Source of the DNA: Girardia tigrina
Taxonomy: Eukaryota
Direction: 5' to 3'
Length of the DNA: 64,000 nt
NCBI GenBank assembly: GCA_001938485.1
Contig: MQRK01239514.1
Location: 1-64,000, forward strand
Program-made: the position numbers and the translations under genes
Shown: one piece after another, positions 46,714 through 63,250 of the stretch
How the letters are laid out: each line of letters starts with the position of its first letter
Numbering within the stretch: position 1 is the first letter of the stretch
The notes under the pieces: generated by a model
What the model was told of the DNA's origin: nothing
Database searches by the model: none
The model's input: only the letters and a program-made list of their open reading frames with translations

Positions 46714-48084
46714 TTAGGGTGAGTCATAAGTTGTGGGGCACTCTTTCCAAAGTAATTATCTTTAATTACAACATGAATTGTCGAATCGATATTAATTGAA
46801 TTTGTATATCGTAATAAAGCTCATAAACTGAAGTTTCAGTATTTGTAAGAAAATCATGATTTTAGTTCATTCTAATTTTTTAAACATTTTAGAAAATTAT
46901 GGAAAAATTTGAAATTAGAGTACTTTTGAAATTTTTCTGGAAAAAAGGTCTGAGTTCAAGGGCTGCCGTAAAGGAAATTTCCNNNNNNNNNNNNNNNNNN
47001 NNNNNNNNNNNNNNNNNNNNNNNNNNNNNNNNNNNNNNNNNNNNNNNNNNNNNNNNNNNNNNNNNNNNNNNNNNNNNNNNNNNNNNNNNNNNNNNNNNNN
47101 NNNNNNNNNNNNNNNNNNNNNNNNNNNNNNNNNNNNNNNNNNNNNNNNNNNNNNNNNNNNNNNNNNNNNNNNNNNNNNNNNNNNNNNNNNNNNNNNNNNN
47201 NNNNNNNNNNNNNNNNNNNNNNNNNNNNNNNNNNNNNNNNNNNNNNNNNNNNNNNNNNNNNNNNNNNNNNNNNNNNNNNNNNNNNNNNNNNNNNNNNNNN
47301 NNNNNNNNNNNNNNNNNNNNNNNNNNNNNNNNNNNNNNNNNNNNNNNNNNNNNNNNNNNNNNNNNNNNNNNNNNNNNNNNNNNNNNNNNNNNNNNNNNNN
47401 NNNNNNNNNNNNNNNNNNNNNNNNNNNNNNNNNNNNNNNNNNNNNNNNNNNNNNNNNNNNNNNNNNNNNNNNNNNNNNNNNNNNNNNNNNNNNNNNNNNN
47501 NNNNNNNNNNNNNNNNNNNNNNNNNNNNNNNNNNNNNNNNNNNNNNNNNNNNNNNNNNNNNNNNNNNNNNNNNNNNNNNNNNNNNNNNNNNNNNNNNNNN
47601 NNNNNNNNNNNNNNNNNNNNNNNNNNNNNNNNNNNNNNNNNNNNNNNNNNNNNNNNNNNNNNNNNNNNNNNNNNNNNNNNNNNNNNNNNNNNNNNNNNNN
47701 NNNNNNNNNNNNNNNNNNNNNNNNNNNNNNNNNNNNNNNNNNNNNNNNNNNNNNNNNNNNNNNNNNNNNNNNNNNNNNNNNNNNNNNNNNNNNNNNNNNN
47801 NNNNNNNNNNNNNNNNNNNNNNNNNNNNNNNNNNNNNNNNNNNNNNNNNNNNNNNNNNNNNNNNNNNNNNNNNNNNNNNNNNNNNNNNNNNNNNNNNNNN
47901 NNNNNNNNNNNNNNNNNNNNNNNNNNNNNNNNNNNNNNNNNNNNNNNNNNCAACTTGCAGAACGTTGGGTACAATGTATTGAACATAATGGACTTTATTT
48001 CGAATCATAATCTTTATTGTGCGTTGTTTTATGAACATTTTAATTTTTAATAAAAAGTGCCCCACAACTCATGACTCACCCTAA
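46714..48084 (+). mobile_element. Full-length mariner element (interior in N gap)
   Basis: TA TSD. TIR TTAGGGTGAGTCAT(A/G)AGTTGTGGGGCACT. Transposase N-terminus MEKFEIRVLLKFFWKKGLSSRAAVKEIS. Confidence 0.92.
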
Positions 48085-50104: not shown

Positions 50105-51750
50105 TAAGGTGGAATTCTTTATGTTTTGTTTAATTTAAAATAATTAAAAATTATAAATTATAACCTCGTGCGGCATCCGCGGAATCGCACGCGTCAACGA
50201 AAACCAGAACCGGTCGGACTGAACCCCGTACTACTACACCTAATCCTGCGGTGTACAACGAGTCGACATGACCTCATTAATTGTATCAAAAGACATCGGG
50301 TGGACGGGACAACCGCATTGCTCGTAACTCCGGACGGTACTGCTCGTCATACAGTAGACGATACACAACGGGGAACCGCCATGAATTGGTCACGGCCCCG
50401 ACACGCAATTATGTGTACAACCAGTGGTCACTGGACTAGATCGGCCAGCACCTCATTGGTGTTAGAAGTGGGATCCAGAGATCCGATCACGGTAAATATT
50501 CGTAAATAAATGTCGAAATACAGTTGTTATACCACCCACGCATCTAATATTCATTACATGCGCACCAAAATTGTAACGGCAAAATCCACAACGTCCACAT
50601 TATCAACAGCTGAAACAATCTCGTCGACAACATGGACAACTACACCAGAAATGGCAATGACAATCATAACAACCAAACCGACAACGACAGCGAGAAATCA
50701 CCCCTAGACATCAGCACAGTCGGAAGCAAAGTCATCTGGCACAATGAGGGTCTGGGGACCATCTCCACAAAAGCAAAAGGTGACGAAACCCCGAAAAGAG
50801 CCACACGACACTACAGAAACATAATCGGGTGCACAACACGGTCGTCCATCACGCTTACATACCAATACCATCAGAAACACCTCATATGCAACACCGTCAC
50901 ACCACAGTAAACACAACAATAAAACACACTCACAGCATCACGTCCAAACTACACTCGACTACCACAGGCAATCCAACATCATACACCCACAAAACAACTG
51001 CGTTCCGACAAAATATTCATTCTTACAGGCCTCCAACTCTATCATACTACCGCAGTGCCACACCTACCATGATCCGCATTTTTAGGTAGGGGCTCATGTG
51101 GCACTCGAAAAATTAATTAATAAAGAAGAATTATTTAAAAATATAACAGTTGTTTTAATATGCAAAATAAATTATGTATGAATAAATTATTCAAATCGGT
51201 GTTATCAAATTGTCTGAATTAGAATAAAGGAATTATTATTTGTTTTTTTCGTATCTGTTTATTTCCTTCCGCCGTTTTCTCACAGTCAATAAAGTCGACC
51301 GCTCCGAAATACAATGTTCAACGACGGGTTGAATCGATCCGACCGACCTCAATGCCACAACACTTAGACCTGTGGTTCACACATTGTCCACTCGAAGAGG
51401 CGATCCGGTGTTGTGCGAACGGACCGAGCAGACTACTCAATGTTTCAAGCATTACCCATGGCTTCACAGTTGGCGATGCACAACGGGGAACTGAGCGACA
51501 AAAAACCGCGATAACAATCCGAGGTGACCCACCGATCGACGAGCTCTCTCTATACGGGGTTCCGTGCTGGAATCGACGCGATCGGTCAATCTCTCCCTGT
51601 GGTAATTCTCCGTACGAATAAGGGGTGTTGGCTGTCACAGCTCGATCCGATGGCCGTCACTTCCCTTTGTTTACATAAATTGGAGGAATTGCATATTCAT
51701 TCGGTATAATTATTGTTGTGTGTGACTGTATATTCTCGTTAAGTGCTACA
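50105..51750 (+). mobile_element. Short non-autonomous LTR retroelement with tRNA-Leu PBS and dissimilar LTRs
   Basis: LTR end ...CAGCACCTCA (50455), then PBS TGGTGTTAGAAGTGGGAT. ~640-bp interior. PPT AGGTAGGGG, then LTR TGTGGCAC...GTGCTACA (51097-51750). 5' start approximate. Confidence 0.7.
50457..50474 (+). promoter_or_regulatory. Primer binding site, tRNA-Leu
   Basis: One mismatch to TGGTGTCAGAAGTGGGAT, the complement of the tRNA-Leu 3' end; 1 nt after LTR CA. Confidence 0.8.
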
Positions 51751-52176
51751 ACGATAGGAGTGCCCTCCCACGGGGTAGTCATCATTAAGCCGGTTGACCT
51801 CTCAATAATTAACTACATCGACTCTAGCACTGCCTTCACCATTCGATAGCATTAAATAACATAATCATACCCAGCATAATCAATCGATATTTCATGACAT
51901 TTGGTTCACTCAATCTTTGCAGATGAAAAGCGATGCCAGTTGTCGGGAATCAGTTGTATTTATATAAAAATTGTCATACTTACGTTATTATTATATTATT
52001 ATTTCTTAGATTATATTATTATATGAGATTATTCCTATCATCTTTCTATAATATTATTATAATTCGTACTTATATTAACAATTTATTACATTAATTAATT
52101 TTGAAAAAGAAATCGATCTCTATAATTGATATCAGTTTTAAAAAATTATATTATTATATTATATTATTATTAATAG

Positions 52177-52889
52177 TGTTGAGGTAATATTTTAAAATTT
52201 ATAAATAAAAATATAAAAAATTTAAATTAATAAAATTAATTAATAATATAGGTCAGTTTGACCTTAATTATAATTTTAATTTTTTATAATAATATAAAGT
52301 CACTTGACCTTAATTATAACTTGGATAATTATTTTTTGGATAAACATCCATCATCCAGTTAATTTACTAGATCAAATTTTGATCTATAATAATATAGAAG
52401 GTCTTAATTATAATTTTGACTTTTTTTTGGATAAACATCCGTCATCCAGTTAATTTACTGGATCAAATTTAGATCTATATAAAGATCAAAAAAAATGAAT
52501 TGAGATAGATGTTAATAAAAAATAAACTGAAAAGTTTTCGACAAATATTTAATAACACTGAAATAGTGTAAAGAATTTCTAAAAAAAAGTAATTTTTTGA
52601 AAAAGATTTTCGATTTTTAAATTTATCGTATCAATTATATATATAAATATATATAGATATATAAACGTGCTGGAAAGTGCGTTCTAAACTTTTCAACTAC
52701 AGTTATTCGAGTTGTCGCTAAAGACTCTCGAATTTTAAATATAAAATCGGCCAGGGGCCAAATAAACTCTGTTCTTTTAACATCTTTAGCTTATTAAAAA
52801 TTGTAATAAATTGTACATACAAAATAAATTTTATAAATAAAACCAGACTTTTCTTCTTGAATAGAATAAAACACAACTAACACTCAACA
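52177..52889 (+). repeat. 5' LTR (713 bp)
   Basis: TG...CA inverted termini; U3 direct repeats at 52250-52480; TATATAAA at ~52658; AATAAA signals; directly followed by PBS. Confidence 0.9.
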
Positions 52890-52893
52890 AATT

Positions 52894-52911
52894 TGGCGCC
52901 CAACGTGGGGC
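52894..52911 (+). promoter_or_regulatory. Primer binding site, tRNA-Lys(CUU)
   Basis: Exact TGGCGCCCAACGTGGGGC. Confidence 0.95.
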
Positions 52912-53076
52912 TATACACGTTTCAATATAATCAAATAGATTTTATTGAATTTAAATCACCTTTGTTGAGTTTTTCTTGTGTTTCTTTTTCCTTTCTAAAA
53001 TACAGTTTAAAGCCAAATAAAATACAAAACGGAGTTAAGAAACAGAAATATAAAAACAGAGATTATACCAAACACA

Positions 53077-53846
53077 ATGAGTAAAAAGACAGGGCAGATA
53101 AGAATACAAAAATCATTAGATTTTCTTCCATTAGATAAATTTTCAGGCAAACAAGAAGACTTTGATACATATTTTACAGAATACAAAACTATACCATAAC
53201 ATGTGGTTGGGAAGAATTAGATATGATTAAAAGACTCCCATTATATTTACAAGGTTACACTTTACAAGCATTTGAAACAATAAATAAAGAGTTAACAGAA
53301 ATTGATAAGGTAATAAAACAATTAAGGGAAATAGTTGTAAAAGATTCAGAATTAAATAAAATATATACACGAGCATTTAGAAATCGTAAACAAAAACCAA
53401 AAGAAACAATAACAGAATATAGCTTTGTGCTAAGTAAATTAGCAGATAAAGCCTTCGGAGAAAGGGCTAGAGTAGGATCAATTGTTCAAGATCAGTTTTT
53501 AGAGGGTATACATGAGTATATAAGAAATGCATTGGCATTAATTGATTATACAGACTATAATGATTTAGTACAACAAGCTCGACGTATCGAAGTTCATAAT
53601 ATCGATAGAAGTAATATTGAAATTTGTGCCACAGGTCCACAACCTATTTTTAAGAAAAATGTAGATTCAAGGAACAGTCACCCTTCCGAAAAGAGGGGAG
53701 GTGGTGGTTTCTCGAATCGATTTAATAATAATAATGGAAATGTAAGAAATGATGATGGAGTGGAGCGCAATAATTTTAATAGAGCCCGAGTAAATAATTA
53801 TAGAGGAAGTTATAGAGGTCAAAATAATAATAGAGGGGGTAATAAT

Positions 53847-53883
<37 letters not shown>

Positions 53884-54218
53884 GAGGCAATATGAATAAC
53901 AATGATGGTAATAATTATAGAAACAGTAATAATGAAAGTAATAATTATAGAAATAATAATAGAGGTAATAATAATTATCGAGGTTCAAGAGGCCATTATC
54001 GAGGAAATAACAGTAATAATTATCGGAATAATAATACTGGTTTTAATAAAAATAATGATAATAAAATGATAAGAGGACAAGTAAATCAGGAAGAAGAAAT
54101 GAAATGTTTTACATGTCAAGGATGGGGTCACCTAGCAAGGTCTTGCCCATCAAATAGAAAATATTTTCCTCAAAATACAAAACGACCAATACATGGAGTA
54201 GAGGTAGCCATAGTCTAG
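53077..54218 (+). pseudogene. gag: Gag (capsid, Asn/Arg/Gly-rich linker, CCHC zinc knuckle); frameshift near 53197
   Basis: LDKFSGKQEDFDTYF, RKQKPKETITEY, DQFLEGI, CFTCQGWGHLARSC. Confidence 0.88.
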
Positions 54219-56845
54219 CCATAGTCTTTGGAGTTACACACTTTCGTCAATATCTATACGGTGCAGAAATCCTATTGAAAACAGATCACAAACCGTTAGA
54301 AAGTTTAATGAAAAATAAAAATGCATCAAGCAGATTAATTGGATGGGCTATGAGACTCCAAGATATGGATATAAAAATTAAATATAGAAAAGGTAAAGCA
54401 AATGCAAATGCAGATGCATTATCACGATTGCCAGTTGCAATACTCGAAAAACAACAACGATCATTAATAGATAAAACAATCGAAATAGCGTCAACAAATA
54501 TAGATATAAATGTTAAACAATTACAAGATCAGGATGAAAAATTACGAGAAATCAAATAGAAGTTAACAGAGAATAAAATTAAACAATATAAACTTATAAA
54601 CGGCACCTTAAAATATATAGATGGTGAGAAAGAATTAATTGTGATACCGGAATCACAAAAAGAAAATATCATGATGCAATATCATGATGGTGCACTAGGA
54701 GGGCACCTCTCACTACGAAAAACCTTCAATAGAATTAGANAAAAATATTATTGGGAAAATATGAGAAACGATATAGAGGAATGGATCAAATCTTGTACAA
54801 TTTGCGCAACTCGAAGAAATACAGGGAATAAAACAAAAGTACCATTACGGCCGATGCCAGTGCCAACAGCACCTTTCGAATTATGTGCGATGGATGTCGT
54901 GGGACCACTTCCAGAAACAATAAATGGTCATAAATATATTTTAGTTTTCATGGATCATTTTTCAAAATTTGCGGAAGTATTCGCAATGCCAAATCAAAAA
55001 GTAGAAACAATCGCACCAATTTTTGTGGAAAAAATAATATTCAAATATGGCCCACCCAAAAAGATATTAACTGATAGAGGTTCAAATTTTATGAGTGAAA
55101 TAATGAGTCAAGTTAATAAAGTTTTTAATATATTAAAATTAAATACTTCAGGATATCATCCTGAGACTAATGGATTAGTAGAACGATTTAATGGTACATT
55201 TCTGAACATTATGTCGTGTTTAACAAATAGAAAGTAATGTGACTGGTGTACATTCATTCCATATGGATTATTTGTTCATAACAATACTGTGTCGGAAGCA
55301 ACCGGTTATAAACCTTCATACATTTTATATCTGAGAGATATTGTCATGCCGATAGATTTGGATTTGAATCCAGCACCATCAAAATTAATGGAAATACCAG
55401 ATTTCGTCACCTTAATGACTGAAATGTTAAACACAGTTTATAAGAAAGTAGGGTTACAGATGAAGTACACTCACGAAAAGTACAAAGAACAATATGACAA
55501 AAAAACACAACCTCATTCATATAAAGTTGGAGATAAAGTTAGAATCTATGCACCTGAGCCTAAAAATGGATTAACACCAAAATTGGCAAGGCCATATAAA
55601 GGGCCATATGAAGTAGTAAAGGTAACACCAACCAATTTATTTCTAATAAAGAAGAAAAACTCAGATCCTATTGTTGTACACGTAAATCGTTGCAAAAAAG
55701 CCGAAATCGTACCCACCAAATCATATAATTTGAGATCAAGTCAGTTAGAAATAGCTATGATTGAAGAAAATCTTACATCTCAATGCAAAAAAGCAACAAT
55801 TTCTGTCCTTCAAGAAGGTATAGGATTCCAATATGCACTTGGAAATCATTATGATGATAAATTACTCAGGAAAGTAATGTATGAACAACCACAATTATTT
55901 GCGTTAAAGAATTCGTTAAAACAAACCCCGATTCAAGTCGCTTTGTGTAGACGGAAATTTCACAAGGTAGAAAGAATGCTTCGAGATAAAATATGTAGAT
56001 ATCCAGGATTATTGGACTCTCAAGACGAAAATGGTTCTACAGCATTAATAGACGCAATACGACTTCAGGCTTCTTTTGAAAATATAATACGACCACTTAT
56101 AATTTACTCTGATTTAATCTTACAAGATTTCTCGGGGAAAACAGCATTTGATTACGGCGAACAAAGTAAATCAAAAATAACAAGGAATGCACTGCAAGTC
56201 ATACAAAATAACAATATTACTTCAATAGAAGGGAAACGAGCAGTAGTACTGTTTGAACATCAAAATCAGGATCATCAAATATACTTAAAGAATAAGGATA
56301 AAATTAAAAATGAAAAATTAGATAAAGATAGTACAACTGTACGTTATAGAAATAGAAATAGAATATTAAATAATACAATTTCATGTTCCGAGAGTAAAAT
56401 TTCTTTATGTATGGTGACCACGCATATAATTATTATCCGTTTAATACTATATTTAGTTAAAGGGGTTGAGGCGAAAGAACTTGGTTTTCGTAGAAGTGCA
56501 ATGCAAATAAGAATTTCGGATGGAACAGTGAAGATAGAGAATACACATCAAATTAGTTATTTGTCTTCTAAAATATATACACAAAACGAATATAAAATAA
56601 ATAATGGAATAAAAAGTATAGAATTTAAGATAACTAATGACCTACGATTAAGACTGGAAGTATATATTAAAAATTTACTGCAACACAATATTTCAATATA
56701 TATACAGAAACAATTTGATCAGACAAATCGAACAGAGATACGGGAAACTAGATATTTTAGGTCGCCCCAAGGACCTGGTTTAATGTTACTTCTCACATAT
56801 GATAGTACATATTCTGTAAGATTTAAAAGCAGATTTCAGAAATGA
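54216..56845 (+). pseudogene. pol: Pol remnant: RNase H C-terminus, integrase (HHCC, DDE, GPY/F), ankyrin repeats, signal-peptide-led extension; in-frame stops at 54557 and 55235
   Basis: LAIVFGVTHFRQYLYG, TDHKPL, NANADALSR; HDGALGGH..CTIC; MDVVGP, TDRGSNF, NGLVERFN; YKGPYEVV, VHVNRCK; KQTPIQVAL, QDENGSTALIDAI, QDFSGKTAFDY. Confidence 0.88.
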
Positions 56846-57533
56846 CAAGCCACTACATTAGTTACAATAATTCCTCCGGTAATTAATATAATTTTGAAAA
56901 AGAATTATATGGTAATTTGGATTATTCCACCTAATATCACAGTAGAAATAGGAAGAAATTCATATCGATTTCGAATTTGTGTCAAAATATGTATAACATA
57001 TAAACACGGTAGGATGAATTATTTACCGATAGATAAAAAACAAAATTATACAATTATGAATATCTTTATTTATCAAGAAACAGACTTAGTAACGACCTTA
57101 CAATCAAATCAAAAACCTTACGGAAATCAAAACAAAACACCGAAAAGTCCGAGATAAAAATGCTTAAAATATTAATATATATAATTTCATTAAATATTAT
57201 TTTAATATTTCTAATCGAAATCGAAATTTTCTTTAATGTTTTATAAAATAAATAGATTCCACAACATCCAGAGAATGTGGAGGAGCTGATGCGGGATCTC
57301 AATATGCTTAATAGTAATGAAATGAAACTGGCGCTGTACGTCTGCCGCTTTCACCGGAAGCTGTACGCGTCAGTCATCGGTGAATCCTTAGATATCCTGC
57401 TCTAGCTCCTGCACTTGCAAATCGCTTTTATACTAAAATAATAGATGTCAATCTATGGAATATCAACATACACTATAGTTCACAGTTCCAAGAGCCACAA
57501 TTAATAAAATATGATGATGAGAATCGTGGATCA

Positions 57534-57902
57534 ATGATATTTGAACCACAAATACAAGATACAAGTTCGACAAAGCAAAGCATAATCACTACTGAACATA
57601 TGCAAATAAAAAGACATACAATGTCATACAAGCTTTTAAATTATAGCAGTCATACAACAAGCAAAAATATAGAGGTTCTTACATCATTAGCAAAACTAAG
57701 GTTATATAATGATTTCGATAAACATGATAGCTGGTCATTCATATTATTAGGCGTAAGCCTAGTTTTATTTCTACTCCTTACAATAGTCGGAATAAGACAA
57801 ATATACCATAAATATAAAAAGAAACTTTTGGCTTTAAACTTGTATCGTACATCCCTGGGGAAATACCTGCCTGGGATGTACGTAAATACTACACAGGTAT
57901 AA
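57534..57902 (+). pseudogene. C-terminal part of an env-like type I membrane protein
   Basis: Hydrophobic helix SWSFILLGVSLVLFLLLTIVGI followed by basic stop-transfer RQIYHKYKKK; env position between pol and 3' LTR. Confidence 0.55.
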
Positions 57903-58763
57903 AAATCATATATAGATGCTGTATGGACATATAGATTTTAAATCTCATATATATTTGTTTATTTTTTTACATTTCTATTTTCTATTGTGTTGAAATGAAC
58001 ACAATTAATTTACTTTTCTTAATTTTAGATTTCAATATGATACCAGTATCAGAACAATCCAGACAGCTCCTCCAAAAGATGCAGTAAAAATATTCTTTAC
58101 AAGCTCTGCCTATCAGAGCCGATGAACATTTAGTTACTTATAATCGTTTTGCTCAAAGAGAAACAGTGCTTGAGGAACAAATTATGAAATCTGACGTTTT
58201 CGATCGAGATCAACGAGTAACTAAAGAAATCCAAAACATTTGCCCATTTGCAAAATTAGAATATGCTAAACAGAGAACATACAAAATAAATTTTATATAT
58301 AAAACCAGACTTTTCTTCTTGAATAGAATAAAACACAACTAACACTCAACAATAGGAAGTAGTTATAATACCACTTTCAATTCAAATTCGGATTTTTAAA
58401 AATCAATAAATAATCTTATTCCTACAAAATTTACAATATCCAATTCCTTCAAAATTTAAAACCAACTCTATACAACTTGTGAATATTTTTAAATTCAAAT
58501 ACTATAGAATTGTTAAATCACTGGGCGAATAACAATATGAGCGACAACAAAATAAGTTAATAAATCATTTTCCATTATACATAATTCAAAAAATTAATCC
58601 TTCTTAAATACAAGCACTAATCACCACCATCATAAATAAGAGAAGATTGTGCATATTCCAAAACTAATAATAATACTCTGAAGAATATGAACAAAAGTTT
58701 GTCTAATTTGATCTATAAGAGACTTATATAAATTTACGAATTCAAATTAATTTATTATATTAT

Positions 58764-61230
58764 TGTTACTGAATCTCAATTCTTTCACGTAATACATATA
58801 TTGCTCTCTTCTTATTCCTTTTTTTAATTCGCTTTTCTAATTAATAAATATTTAATAATATATATTTCGATATCTATATTTATCGTCAGGCAAGTTATTT
58901 CATCACATGATTAAATTTGTTTTTGAGATCAGTTACTTAACTACACTGTTTTTCAGAATCAGCGTTCAACTACGATAGAAACGTACTAGGTCATATTCAA
59001 CAAAGAATTTAGAAACTCGAAGTTATCGGTGATAAATTTCACAAAAACTGTCGAATTGAATGCATTCGCTGTAAAACACAAAATATTTTGATATTTATTA
59101 GGGATGAATTTACTTCCATTCTAAATGAAAAAGAAATTAAGACTTGCAAAATTATTTCAAAATTACCAAAGGTTATATTTGTTATTTAAACAAATCTTCA
59201 TTTTTTTATTTTCTTTTTTTAATTTAATATTCCAAATTTTTTTTTTTAAAAATTCGATTATAATTCTAAATTTTAGAAAATCAAAATTTCTATTTCCGAA
59301 AATTAAGAAATTAACAACAACACTCTCTTACACCCCCGCACGCAAAAAATTTTTAATTTTCTCCACATTTCTTTCACATGTTTTACCAGACATATCTTCA
59401 AGAACATATCTTGTATCATGTATTTTTCGAATGACTTTATATGGTCCGTCGTATCTCCCTTGATCTATTGTTCTAGATTCTACTTTTACCAATATATCAT
59501 CTCCTGGAAAAAATTTTCTTCAAGTGATAGGCTCATATTTCCGCTCATATTAAAATATTTTGCTATTTTTCCATCCCATTTCCCCCTGCTAATGCGTTTT
59601 CCGAAAATGATTTCAGCTGGACTCATCCCGATAGTCGTCTGTAAAATGGCATTGAATGAGAACTCGATCTCCGGTCAAATCTCTGCCCAGTCCGAAATTG
59701 TTTCTGCAATGTTGCGTTTATCAGTTCTCTCACTGTAAGGAATTGTCGTTCAATTTTTCTGTTTGTGTTATGATTCAAAAACCTTACCACAATCCACATT
59801 CATCGCCTTGGGAGAACCAAATTTCAATATCCAATTCCGCATTATTCCTTTTATTATCGATTTTACATCTTGTTTCGATATGGCTAATAATGTAATGTAT
59901 TTATTAAACTGATCAATGATAAAATATATTTCTTTTTCAATGGTAGAATATATTTCTTTTTCCCAGAAGTCTCTTTCAACGGTCCACAAATATCCATATA
60001 AATACATTCAAAATCATCGGCAGTTATCATGTTCTCTTTTGTCTTAGCCGTATATGTTTTATACTTTTGGCATAATTTACATTTACGTACAATCTCTTTG
60101 ATCCTTCAGCTTGTCAAAATCCTTAGAGTTTTTTAAATAATACTCAACTTTTCTTGCACAGGCGTTTGCCAACATCCGATGGGTTTCCCAGATAATATCT
60201 TCGAGTGACTTTGTAGTTTTATCTTCTGATACAACATTCAGTGCACGTGTCTTGATTCTTTCTTTCTTAGTTTCCTTGTGTTGCATCAAACATTGAGTAC
60301 TCGTACCACAATTCATCTTTGATAGCATATCAGCATTCTTGTGCAAAAATCCTTTTCGAAATTCTAACTTCATATCCAGACTGCTCAGATAGTTAAGCCA
60401 CGTTTGAAACTGCGATGTAATTTGCTCCTTAGTGTTCAGCATAAACGTGATTGCTTTATGATCAGTACGCAAAATAAACCGTTTACAATACAGAAAATGT
60501 CTAAAATGGTTACAAAAATAATACATGGCAAGCAATTCTTTTCTTGTAACACAATAGCCCTTCTTGTGGCTATTGATTGATCGCGATCCATAAGCTACAA
60601 ATATTTGCATTCCTTGATCGTCCTTCTGTGCTAACACGGCTCCAATTGTGTCGAAACTAGCATCCGTATCTAAAATAAAATCTCTTTTCATGTCTGGAAA
60701 ACGCAATACCAGGCTTGTCATTAATGCATTCTTCATCTCCAATTCAGTTTTTTATTGTTTTTCGGGCCGCATAATTGTTCTAATACTCCAGCATTCTTTA
60801 CATACTCTTATTAATCGTCGATAATAGTTAAAAATAGATAAAAAAGATAATAGTTATAAATGTGTCTGTTTTTACACCGTCTTCGTTAACTTTATGTCCA
60901 AGGAATTAAATTTCCCGTTTCAACAATTGATATTTTTTGGGTTCAACCGTAATCCTGTTTTTCTAATGATATCTAAAACTTGATTCAAAACAATAGAGTA
61001 TCGATCCTGATCTTTTGTGTATACCAAGATATCATCTAAGTATACAGAGGCACCCTTGATCCCTCCGACTACCTTTGTCATCGTTTCTTGGAAAGTTCCC
61101 AGTGCAGTTGCTATAGCAAATTGCATATGAGTAAAACAATACTGTCCTTGTTTTGTAGAAAATGCAGTTTTCTGCTGAGATTTATGTGGAAAATAGGTAT
61201 ACTAGTCCGCTATTGTTTAGATATTTTCAT
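58764..61230 (-). mobile_element. pol: Decayed Gypsy element: RT-RNase H-integrase fragments, PPT and 3' LTR
   Basis: VYLDDILVY; LDTDASFDTIGAVLAQ, RKELLAM, TDHKA, NADMLS; DCGKVFES. Minus-strand GCGGGGG|TGTAAG at 59332. Outer LTR boundary uncertain. Confidence 0.85.
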
Positions 61231-61269: not shown

Positions 61270-61914
61270 GAAAACACATGCCTGATTTTTAAAAAAAATC
61301 CGACAAGGGGATGTAATTCTTAATTCTTTTGAACTAATCCTTGCAATTAAATGGAGAGATAAAAGAGAAATTTATATTTTATTAACTATCCATGAAATTT
61401 TAATGACTGTTACAAAAAAACGTTAATAAAACAACAAAAGAACATATTCAGAAACCTACTGCAATGCTTTGGCATAATCAAAATATGCGTGATGTGGACA
61501 AATCTGATAAGATGCTAAGTGAAATAAAATTTACAAAGAAAACCATCAAGTGGTACAAAAAACTTTTTTTATCTTGGAGATATGTACATCTACAATTCTT
61601 ATATTTTATATGACATGAAGAAAAAGAACCACACTACATTAGCAGATTTTGAACTTTTATTAATAGAAGAAATATTTGAAAAACATAACAATATTAATTC
61701 TTTAACAATAGGCAGAGCTCATGTTAATGAGCCATTAAGATTAACAGGACGTCATTTTATTAAGGAAATTCGGACACAAGAATATCATAAGCAAAAAGTA
61801 AGAAGATGTGTTGTCTGCAGCAACCATGGTGTCAAAAAAAGAAACATCATTTTACTGCCTTTCCTTTATGTTCGTCCTTGCTTCGAAAATTATTATTTTA
61901 AACGTAATTATTAA
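61270..61914 (+). pseudogene. piggyBac (PGBD4-like) transposase, C-terminal fragment
   Basis: KWRDKREIY, NQNMRDVDKSDKML, KKTIKWYKKLF, YNSYILY, RLTGRHF, RRCVVC...PCF. Confidence 0.85.
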
Positions 61915-62038: not shown

Positions 62039-63250
62039 CAGGGTGGTCCAATGGTTACGCGATGCGTTTTTTGCAGAAATGGAATCAGCACGTCAAGACG
62101 AGCATTTTGATATATAACTTTGGGAAATCGACGTAGAGCATCAGGGTCAAATTACGCAACTCGGAATTTCGATGCAAATGAGGTGTCATTATAAAGATAT
62201 TTTTATGCTGATTAGAAATATGTAAATTTTGTATTATGAGATTAGTGTTTTTAGTCATTTTTTAATTTACTAGTGAATTATTTTTATTTTAAATTAATTT
62301 TAACTGATAAATTGTGATTAAAATGTTGAAATATACAGTTGATCATCGTGTCTTCATGGTTCTGTTCTACAATAAGCTCGAAAATCTTGCGGAAACAGTT
62401 AAAGCTTTTAAAAACAATTTGGAAAGCTTCATAACATCAACGCATCAAAAATTTTACGGACATTCGAAAAGTTCAAGTCAACTGACTCAATATTCGACGA
62501 CAACGAAGGTAAGAAAACTAAAGAAAAAACTAAAAGGATGGAGGAAAACATCAAGAAAGTTCGAGAATATTATCAAGAATGTACTAGTACATGGGAAAGA
62601 CAAGCATCACCAGTTTTAAACAATAGCAATACATCAATTCATCGAATTTTAAAAATTGATATTGGTCTATTCCCATACAAAATTCAAGTCAACCAGCCGA
62701 TTAGTGAAATTGGCAGCAGCAATAGATTGGAATTTGCGAACAAAATGATCACCTCATCTGAATGTGAAGAAGTTGATTTTACACAGATTTGGTTCAGCGA
62801 CGAAGCTTATTTCTATCTACAGGGTTACGTAAACAAGCTGAACTGGTAGAAATGGGGAAGTGAAAATCCTCATTGTTTGATTATTAGGCCATTACACCCA
62901 GTTCGCCTTACAATTTGGTGCGCGATTTCAGCGAAATGATTATTGGCCTGGTGCTTATTACGTAAAATATTACTGGTGAGCGATATTTCAACATGTTAAA
63001 TAACGATTTCATCTCCTATCTTGGTGTTCTCGACAAAAATCAACGATTATTGGTTCATGCAAGATGGCGCTAGACCTCATAGAACATCTCAAATATTCGA
63101 ATTATTAGGCGAGCACTTTGGAAACAGGATTATTAGACTTGGTTCTATAAAATATACCAGTGAAGGTATCGATTGGCCACCATATTCACTAGATTTAAAC
63201 CCCTGCGACTATTTTATTTGGGAATATTTAAAGGAACGGGTACATATATG
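62039..63250 (+). mobile_element. rosa/DD41D-family element, decayed and 3'-truncated
   Basis: TA|CAGGGTGGTCC TIR; PYKIQ, WFSDEAYF, FMQDGARPH, WPPYSLDLNPCDYFIW. Confidence 0.88.

Follow-up and report, generated by a model that had tools for sequence, protein, structure and literature searches.

The window analysed here, a 64,000-nucleotide stretch of Girardia tigrina contig MQRK01239514.1, contains a retroelement whose integrase and ankyrin repeats are followed, in the same reading frame, by a signal-peptide-like stretch and, further downstream in another frame, by a transmembrane (TM) helix with a basic tail. Do these pieces belong to one membrane protein, and, if so, is that protein the envelope of the element? 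The initial annotation read them as an independently acquired envelope or surface protein, interrupted by stops and frameshifts, at the end of an integrase–ankyrin–signal–ectodomain–TM polyprotein.

The region lies in a Ty3/Gypsy insertion. The features of the copy in the window are as follows.

52177–58351, + strand: Ty3/Gypsy insertion with two internal deletions
52177–52889, + strand: 5' LTR, 713 bp, TGTTGAG...CTCAACA (sister LTRs align from 52166–52177 to about 52890)
52894–52911, + strand: primer-binding site, assigned by sequence, presumably of the tRNA-Lys type
53077–54218, + strand: gag remnant with a CCHC knuckle, joined by deletion to the RNase H end
54203–55700, + strand: RNase H end and integrase (zinc finger, core and C-terminal domain), with in-frame stops (Pfam)
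55826–56341, + strand: ankyrin-repeat module in the pol frame (Pfam Ank_2)
56411–56473, + strand: internal signal-peptide-like stretch in the integrase–ankyrin frame (hydropathy, sister segments)
56474–56842, + strand: ectodomain part D1, found in types A and B only (sister comparison)
56843–56845, + strand: in-frame stop codon private to this copy (sister comparison)
56864–57102, + strand: first part of the core beta-sandwich domain D2, with CxxxC and the conserved sequon (predicted fold, alignment)
57103–57417, + strand: foreign insert of 315 bp, outside the gene proper (sister comparison)
57418–57734, + strand: end of D2 and variable stalk
about 57735–57830, + strand: TM helix and polybasic juxtamembrane stretch (hydropathy)
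57833–57900, + strand: predicted -1 frameshift cassette (heptamer, spacer, predicted stems)
57833–58275, + strand: remnant of the -1 frame ORF2, with two stops, cut by a deletion
58276–58351, + strand: last 76 bp of the 3' LTR (75/76 identical to the 5' LTR)

The copy retains the TG...CA LTR ends, the primer-binding site and a 4-bp target duplication (ATAG, 52173–52176 and 58352–58355) expected of a Ty3/Gypsy element, with a truncated 3' LTR; the order protease (PR), reverse transcriptase (RT), RNase H (RH), integrase (IN) is present in sister L155. One deletion has fused the end of gag directly to that of RNase H, and comparison with the sisters indicates that an extra Gag-side region, a gB-type Env, PR and RT are absent from the window. 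The other joins the start of the downstream ORF to the final 76 bp of the 3' LTR. The integrase–ankyrin reading frame spans 55238–56845 and includes the signal-like stretch. The ankyrin (ANK) module matches Ank_2 at E 0.012 in the window and 2.2e-05 in L155, both under the curated cut-off. The TM helix (best 19-residue hydropathy 2.95) lies in a frame that differs from the integrase–ankyrin frame in this copy.

The stop and the apparent frameshifts are lesions of the window copy alone, and consist of one stop codon and one 315-bp insert. All 25 readable sisters are open at 56843–56845, and all 20 A-type loci covering both sides of the insert lack it, carrying instead a short stretch of constant length; several of the 26 A-type loci examined are near-identical, and the counts are not all independent. 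A DNA search of the organism's own genome (40 of 743 candidates scored) gave 66 matches, split at query positions 713/1029. Contigs of two further public runs also join 57102 directly to 57418, and the insert itself is a piece of another low-copy repeated sequence. Sister L019 reads through in one frame of 310 aa, and sister L054 reads from the ankyrin module to the final stop in one frame of 568 aa. Thus, the interruptions seen by the initial annotation are real in the window but private to this copy, and its proposed polyprotein is read in a single frame in sisters (L054, L155), with the signal and TM segments conserved in one ORF.

Copies of the gene are spread over the genome, at well over 100 sites. 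The window copy belongs to type A, and a sister type, type B, is about 45% identical to it; the A/B gene has at least 128 genome matches and the single-domain types have at least 154. A query with the ankyrin module (152 genome matches) led to more distant subfamilies with the same layout and a single ectodomain unit, a homologue of the second A/B ectodomain half (hhalign 98.6). In all, about five diverged subfamilies share the position and layout of the gene, which is thus not an unrelated host insertion next to the element. The first unit, D1, matches the core domain weakly (hhalign probability 10.6). D1 is possibly an old duplicate of D2, and at that probability we do not treat a tandem duplication as established.

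The sense frame has no stop in five sister segments of 738–1185 nt, against 23–34 expected from shuffles, and 0 of 2000 shuffles are open. An antisense or other-code reading of the ectodomain is rejected, as all five other frames are closed. The GY94 omega is 0.12 (LRT 63) between the window copy and type B, a value that is imprecise because the synonymous distance is near saturation, and 0.13–0.26 among other types. NG86 gives 0.38–0.48 for the A and B ectodomains, near the values between recent copies of type B (0.34–0.65), and the differences are evenly distributed across codon positions. The gap between the methods is likely due to a high transition bias (kappa 4–9) together with near-saturation. 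These sequence comparisons indicate that the gene is under purifying selection, with an uncertain exact omega. In A–B pairs, divergence of the ectodomain is roughly tenfold that of the integrase (pair distances 2.8–3.3 for the ectodomain, 0.32 for IN and 0.78 for ANK). In addition, mosaics such as L018 and L048 combine an A or B ectodomain with the tail or ORF2 of another type. Therefore, the module either changes fast or is exchanged between subfamilies.

What kind of protein is it? The signal-like stretch precedes the ectodomain in 60 distinct natural segments, chosen by a motif and hydropathy filter, with a mean best 12-residue hydropathy of 3.0. The Met at 56411 is not conserved, and the signal is therefore internal. 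Two Cys residues (CxxxC) are kept in 34 of 35 rows, as is one N-glycosylation sequon column. Together with the signal-like stretch, these residues fit a luminal or extracellular domain, presumably one cleaved by signal peptidase and of type I topology. We are highly confident that the region encodes a real surface glycoprotein.

Core unit D2 (116 aa, 35 aligned rows) is modelled with a pLDDT of 87.4 and a pTM of 0.80 as ten strands and no helix; the model of the whole two-unit protein (alignment A1, pLDDT 33) is unusable. Foldseek with the core model returned no row at E<=0.001 in PDB or BFVD. VIA-align ranks a de novo Ig dimer highest (Z 6.4, rmsd 2.5, 82 aligned), followed by Ig/FnIII-like domains (Z 5.0–5.6); as a Z under 8 may reflect no more than a common arrangement, the core would be a generic sandwich with no family call. 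The fold-search null concerns the core only, and indicates neither a new fold nor absence. By sequence, no homologue of the ectodomain was found outside its own family: a profile search of 1.84 billion protein representatives returned the family's own P0001 only, a further profile search of a large protein set returned P0001 and P0002 only, and two Atlas searches, a PDB sequence search and searches of viral and metagenome contigs, in which records close to this genome may be missing, gave no match to the ectodomain. Among five matching public runs (contigs, small word shares), one is a recorded RNA run, whose contigs do not cover the ectodomain.

The protein fits none of the fusogen classes by its sequence, given the size of its ectodomain, its two Cys residues and the lack of a furin site. 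Class I (F-type) Env has a furin site, a fusion peptide and a coiled coil, whereas a scan of ectodomain pieces from 7 segments shows no RxK/RR site and the core model is free of helix; the initial annotation had likewise seen no RxKR or fusion-peptide signature. Class II and III fusogens have large Cys-rich ectodomains, whereas the core here has 116 residues and two conserved Cys; the initial annotation had also called the segment Cys-poor. The small FAST/sORF2 fusogens (ectodomains of about 30 residues, proteins of about 60–200 aa) share the juxtamembrane polybasic patch with the protein but not its size.

Furthermore, the family has another envelope. In three sisters, the Monjiviricetes fusion glycoprotein domain PF24664 is found upstream of the protease (E 1.4e-30, 2.2e-61 and 1.1e-26). 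This gB-type Env lies in frame between gag and protease, and was lost from the window copy by deletion. L155 reads in one frame of 1922 aa (28 X) from the C-terminus of PF24664 through PR, RT, RH, IN and ANK to the tail of the flagged protein. L195 reads in one frame of 968 aa, without X, from the zinc knuckle to the start of Env, and L193 is likewise in frame from the start of Gag to the start of Env. From these overlapping natural frames of different copies, we infer an ORF1 of about 3,300 aa. Because the sisters already carry a gB/chuvirus-type Env, the flagged protein is unlikely to be a fusogen, and is very probably not the main one. The proposal of an independently acquired envelope thus stands in part: the reading frame is conserved, the protein is of an undescribed type and the element is retrovirus-like, but the data do not support the flagged protein as its defining envelope, the recognisable fusion glycoprotein being the PF24664 Env elsewhere in the polyprotein.

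On balance, we favour the reading that a conserved gene closes the Gag-Env-Pol Gypsy reading frame and encodes a second, non-fusogenic attachment glycoprotein, with a predicted -1 frameshift into an exonuclease. The polyprotein would thread the membrane twice, releasing first the gB-type fusogen and then, after Pol-ANK, a small type I glycoprotein that the internal signal would cut free. The glycoprotein would be displayed on particles or on the producing cell, and may act in cell attachment or host recognition beside the gB-type fusion protein. An attachment role is favoured in view of a surface-type module that varies and is swapped between subfamilies, in a family that retains its Env; as the specific role, judged from sequence, we give it an even chance.

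The main rival to attachment is a captured host Ig/FnIII-like domain that, on the producing cell, would act as an immune decoy, block superinfection or chaperone Env. The nearest structures are indeed generic Ig/FnIII-like sandwiches (Z 5.0–6.4), the neighbours of the gene are other accessory modules (ankyrin, exonuclease), and fast divergence also fits host conflict. However, no host homologue was found: the genome matches that were opened are copies of the element, profile searches gave family members only, and a Z under 8 may reflect just the common arrangement noted above. We consider a captured host domain unlikely, though still a serious competitor.

The tail of the glycoprotein gene is likely a -1 frameshift cassette, overlooked by the earlier reading. 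A TTTAAAC heptamer at 57833–57839 is in phase (T TTA AAC) in a near-invariant tail. It is followed by a 6-nt spacer, a 10-bp stem 1 (57846–57855/57873–57882) and a 7-bp stem 2 (57863–57869/57894–57900), and the predicted H-type pseudoknot closes on the zero-frame stop (57900–57902). The heptamer is present at 74 of 80 distinct sites, which were anchored without using it, and TTTAAAT is present at 2 more. Its synonymous positions are fixed (GCT 75/80, TTA 77/80, AAC 74/80). Downstream sequence is complete at 68 of the 80 sites. Over the 42 codons after the pseudoknot, the -1 frame is stop-free in 47 of these 68, the two remaining frames in 4 and 2; it holds 49 stops, compared with 223 and 130.

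The window segment folds at z -3.69, and three other copies at z -1.9 to -2.4. In L155, folding behind the cassette heptamer reaches -17.0 kcal/mol, compared with -2.5 to -12.7 behind 13 other in-phase heptamers. Stem 2 is paired in 96.8% of cells, and its conservation in the 80-site set is by construction; two groups keep 10 stem-1 pairs only through a register shift. Two-sided covariation, in 31 rows picked by protein motif, amounts to 0–1 changes, not above shuffles in either stem-1 register. Sequence conservation in the cassette is confounded because both frames code there. Rfam gave no match for the cassette. Taking the heptamer and the open -1 frame together, we think that the frameshift is probably used.

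In sisters, the -1 frame continues into an ORF, ORF2, that matches RNase_T (E 3e-10), with ISG20L2 (1.1e-10) and ISG20 (1.4e-08) closest. The D-x-E of ExoI is present in 9 of 10 rows, ExoII reads GHDLxME in 6 of 6 rows and the H-x-x-x-ED of ExoIII is present in all 5 rows covering the site. ORF2 is thus a putative DEDDh-type exonuclease (ISG20/REX4-like) by its motifs. An apparent resemblance of its first half to BRO-N has no Pfam support and was dropped. A second hydrophobic stretch follows the shift (19-residue hydropathy 1.9–2.9 in 8 full rows) and would put the nuclease in the lumen, with which the absence of a conserved sequon in ORF2 (best column 5/10) sits oddly. In the window, the ORF2 remnant holds this stretch, a pyrimidine tract with AG (58027–58028) and a Met at 58037.

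The pyrimidine tract and AG before the ORF2 Met mean that splicing could make ORF2 without a frameshift. The tail would then be kept for an intron with its donor at CAG/GTAT (57897) or further upstream and its acceptor at the AG preceding the Met, and the open -1 frame would be a by-product of a T-rich intron. In the sites listed, the tract and AG stand just ahead of the Met, and a CAG/ATG joint would bring the tail in frame with ORF2 in many C/D copies. On the other hand, the acceptor phase varies between subfamilies, so that a local intron would be out of frame in some of them; the two other frames hold far more stops than the -1 frame; the synonymous positions of the heptamer are fixed; and no such joint is present among the joints listed in public-run contigs, an absence that by itself carries no weight. 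We regard retention for splicing as improbable, although the frameshift and splicing routes may both be used.

With the frameshift, a minority of ribosomes would shift -1 at the tail, at ordinary viral efficiency, and add the nuclease, which may trim those nucleic acids of the element that would give it away to the host. The full proposal is a two-protein entry system in which one polyprotein supplies a gB-type fusogen and an exchangeable attachment glycoprotein of an undescribed fold family, and a nidovirus-style post-pol frameshift yields an ISG20-like nuclease, tethered to the membrane and possibly located in the lumen or on particles, that blunts host nucleic-acid sensing. We advance this combination tentatively, and doubt that every part of it will hold.

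Could the glycoprotein be a second fusogen, of a new class or FAST-like, as sORF2 of MDG1-group elements? It has a signal, an ectodomain, a TM helix and a polybasic tail; the available part of PMC11952523 describes small TM fusogens in LTR elements, some downstream of pol, and that of PMC5408684 has small rotifer TM ORF3s proposed as fusogens. But the gB-type Env is already in the family, the scanned segments have no furin site, only two Cys are conserved, and sORF2/FAST ectodomains span about 30 residues in proteins of 63–107 aa (PMC11952523, in part), compared with at least 116 residues and a stalk here. We judge a second fusogen to be quite improbable. Finally, the region might be a host insertion unrelated to the element, or be open by chance. 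The weak codon-position signal by NG86 and the lack of a homologue outside the family might speak for this reading, but it is refuted, with a negligible residual probability, by the layout common to about five subfamilies, the open frames, an omega far below 1 and the confidently predicted fold.

If the attachment reading is correct, a fast-changing, swappable surface protein would be a candidate for setting cell tropism, by analogy with viruses that assign attachment and fusion to separate proteins. The movement between cells of Env-bearing Gypsy elements outside Drosophila is described as an open question in the available part of PMC13524379. Dosing an accessory gene through a frameshift downstream of pol, instead of one between gag and pol, would be unusual. 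The ectodomain is a small domain whose fold is predicted with confidence, and searches of very large protein sets gave no relatives.

The element type itself has been published. In planarians, Burro/GYPSM1 carries an env in frame between gag and pol that matches mononegaviral glycoproteins, and resembles the present element in its one huge polyprotein, ankyrin repeats and accessory ORFs (PMC6431247). It differs in the length of ORF1 (4,873–5,140 aa there, compared with about 3,300 aa here, roughly a half-size family) and in having a dUTPase between PR and RT, for which L155 has no match. Its BIR, BCL2 and MATH domains have no match in the scanned 160 aa of the Gag-to-Env region here. Section 7 of PMC6431247, compared by description only, makes no reference to a membrane protein at the C-terminus, a frameshift or an exonuclease. 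The gB-type GAG-ENV-POL errantiviruses of Platyhelminthes, Nematoda and Bryozoa, including Smed_errantivirus_1-6, also have a gB-type Env upstream of pol, and the Env fragment of Smed_errantivirus_1 resembles that of the sisters by eye only (PMC13524379, in part). The words ankyrin, exonuclease and frameshift have 0 occurrences in the main text of that paper (its supplements were searched for phylum names only), and the part available describes no second membrane protein. In the literature searched, neither a second membrane protein nor a frameshift after pol is described for such elements, although Grohme 2018, Jurka 2007 or Repbase entries may already annotate parts; within that literature, the second membrane protein and the frameshift cassette appear new.

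Several of these parts have counterparts elsewhere. The sORF2/FAST-like fusogens of the MDG1 group combine a TM protein and a juxtamembrane polybasic patch in an LTR element (PMC11952523, in part), whereas the ectodomain here is four to eight times longer and predicted to be folded and glycosylated, the signal is internal and a full Env is kept in the family. Nidovirus-type -1 signals have UUUAAAC, a 6-nt spacer, a stem 1 of about 10 bp and a 7-bp stem 2, as here; the geometry of the IBV signal is 6/11/7, compared with 6/10/7 here, as given in the available part of PMC3835772. The predicted signal differs in that its loop 1 is longer (7 nt), its stems are 3 nt apart and it follows pol and a membrane protein instead of lying between gag and pol. 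In bdelloid LTR elements, small ORFs with a TM segment and DEDD exonucleases also follow pol, but there they are alternative stand-alone ORF3s, and the exonucleases are DEDDy-type (PMC5408684, in part). In the present family, by contrast, the TM protein and the ISG20-like domain occur together, fused to pol and chained by the predicted frameshift.

No Pfam family was matched by either of the following conserved regions, which belong to related copies of the element at other loci of the genome (160 residues were scanned for the first).

L008:2704-3183, minus strand, and sister copies: region between Gag and Env, conserved and in frame
L102:4951-7443, plus strand: ORF2, the -1 frame ORF after the membrane-protein tail; its first half (first 380 residues) is conserved across subfamilies

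The region between Gag and Env, as represented by L008, has 151 matches in the genome.

The zero-frame tail of the membrane protein ends in T-x-V (57891-57902), the pattern of a class I PDZ-binding motif. The T-x-V codons overlap stem 2 of the predicted frameshift pseudoknot, and the conservation of T-x-V may therefore be RNA-driven.

The membrane-protein gene of the window copy carries a foreign insert.

57103-57417: foreign insert derived from a low-copy repeat; related sequence at L022:1501-1800

The repeat has ten matches in a genome search. The insert stands in place of a few bases, without target duplication, and a 127-codon open frame begins inside it.

Loci L087 and L076, both of type B, share an identical junction at which an in-frame deletion joins early RT to late integrase, suggesting a non-autonomous derivative that spread.

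Other features of the window are separate from this copy.

59463-60751, minus strand: pieces of another Gypsy element, distinct from the first (RT_RNaseH, Pfam E 4.6e-27)
62412-62849 and 61528-61914: open frames

A GC-richer island with short open frames (50144-51660; GC 41-43% versus ~28%) lies upstream of the LTR and is outside the Gypsy element. In translation, the flanks of an N-masked stretch (46983-47950) resemble the end of a mariner-type transposase, and the two open frames resemble decayed DNA-transposon transposases.
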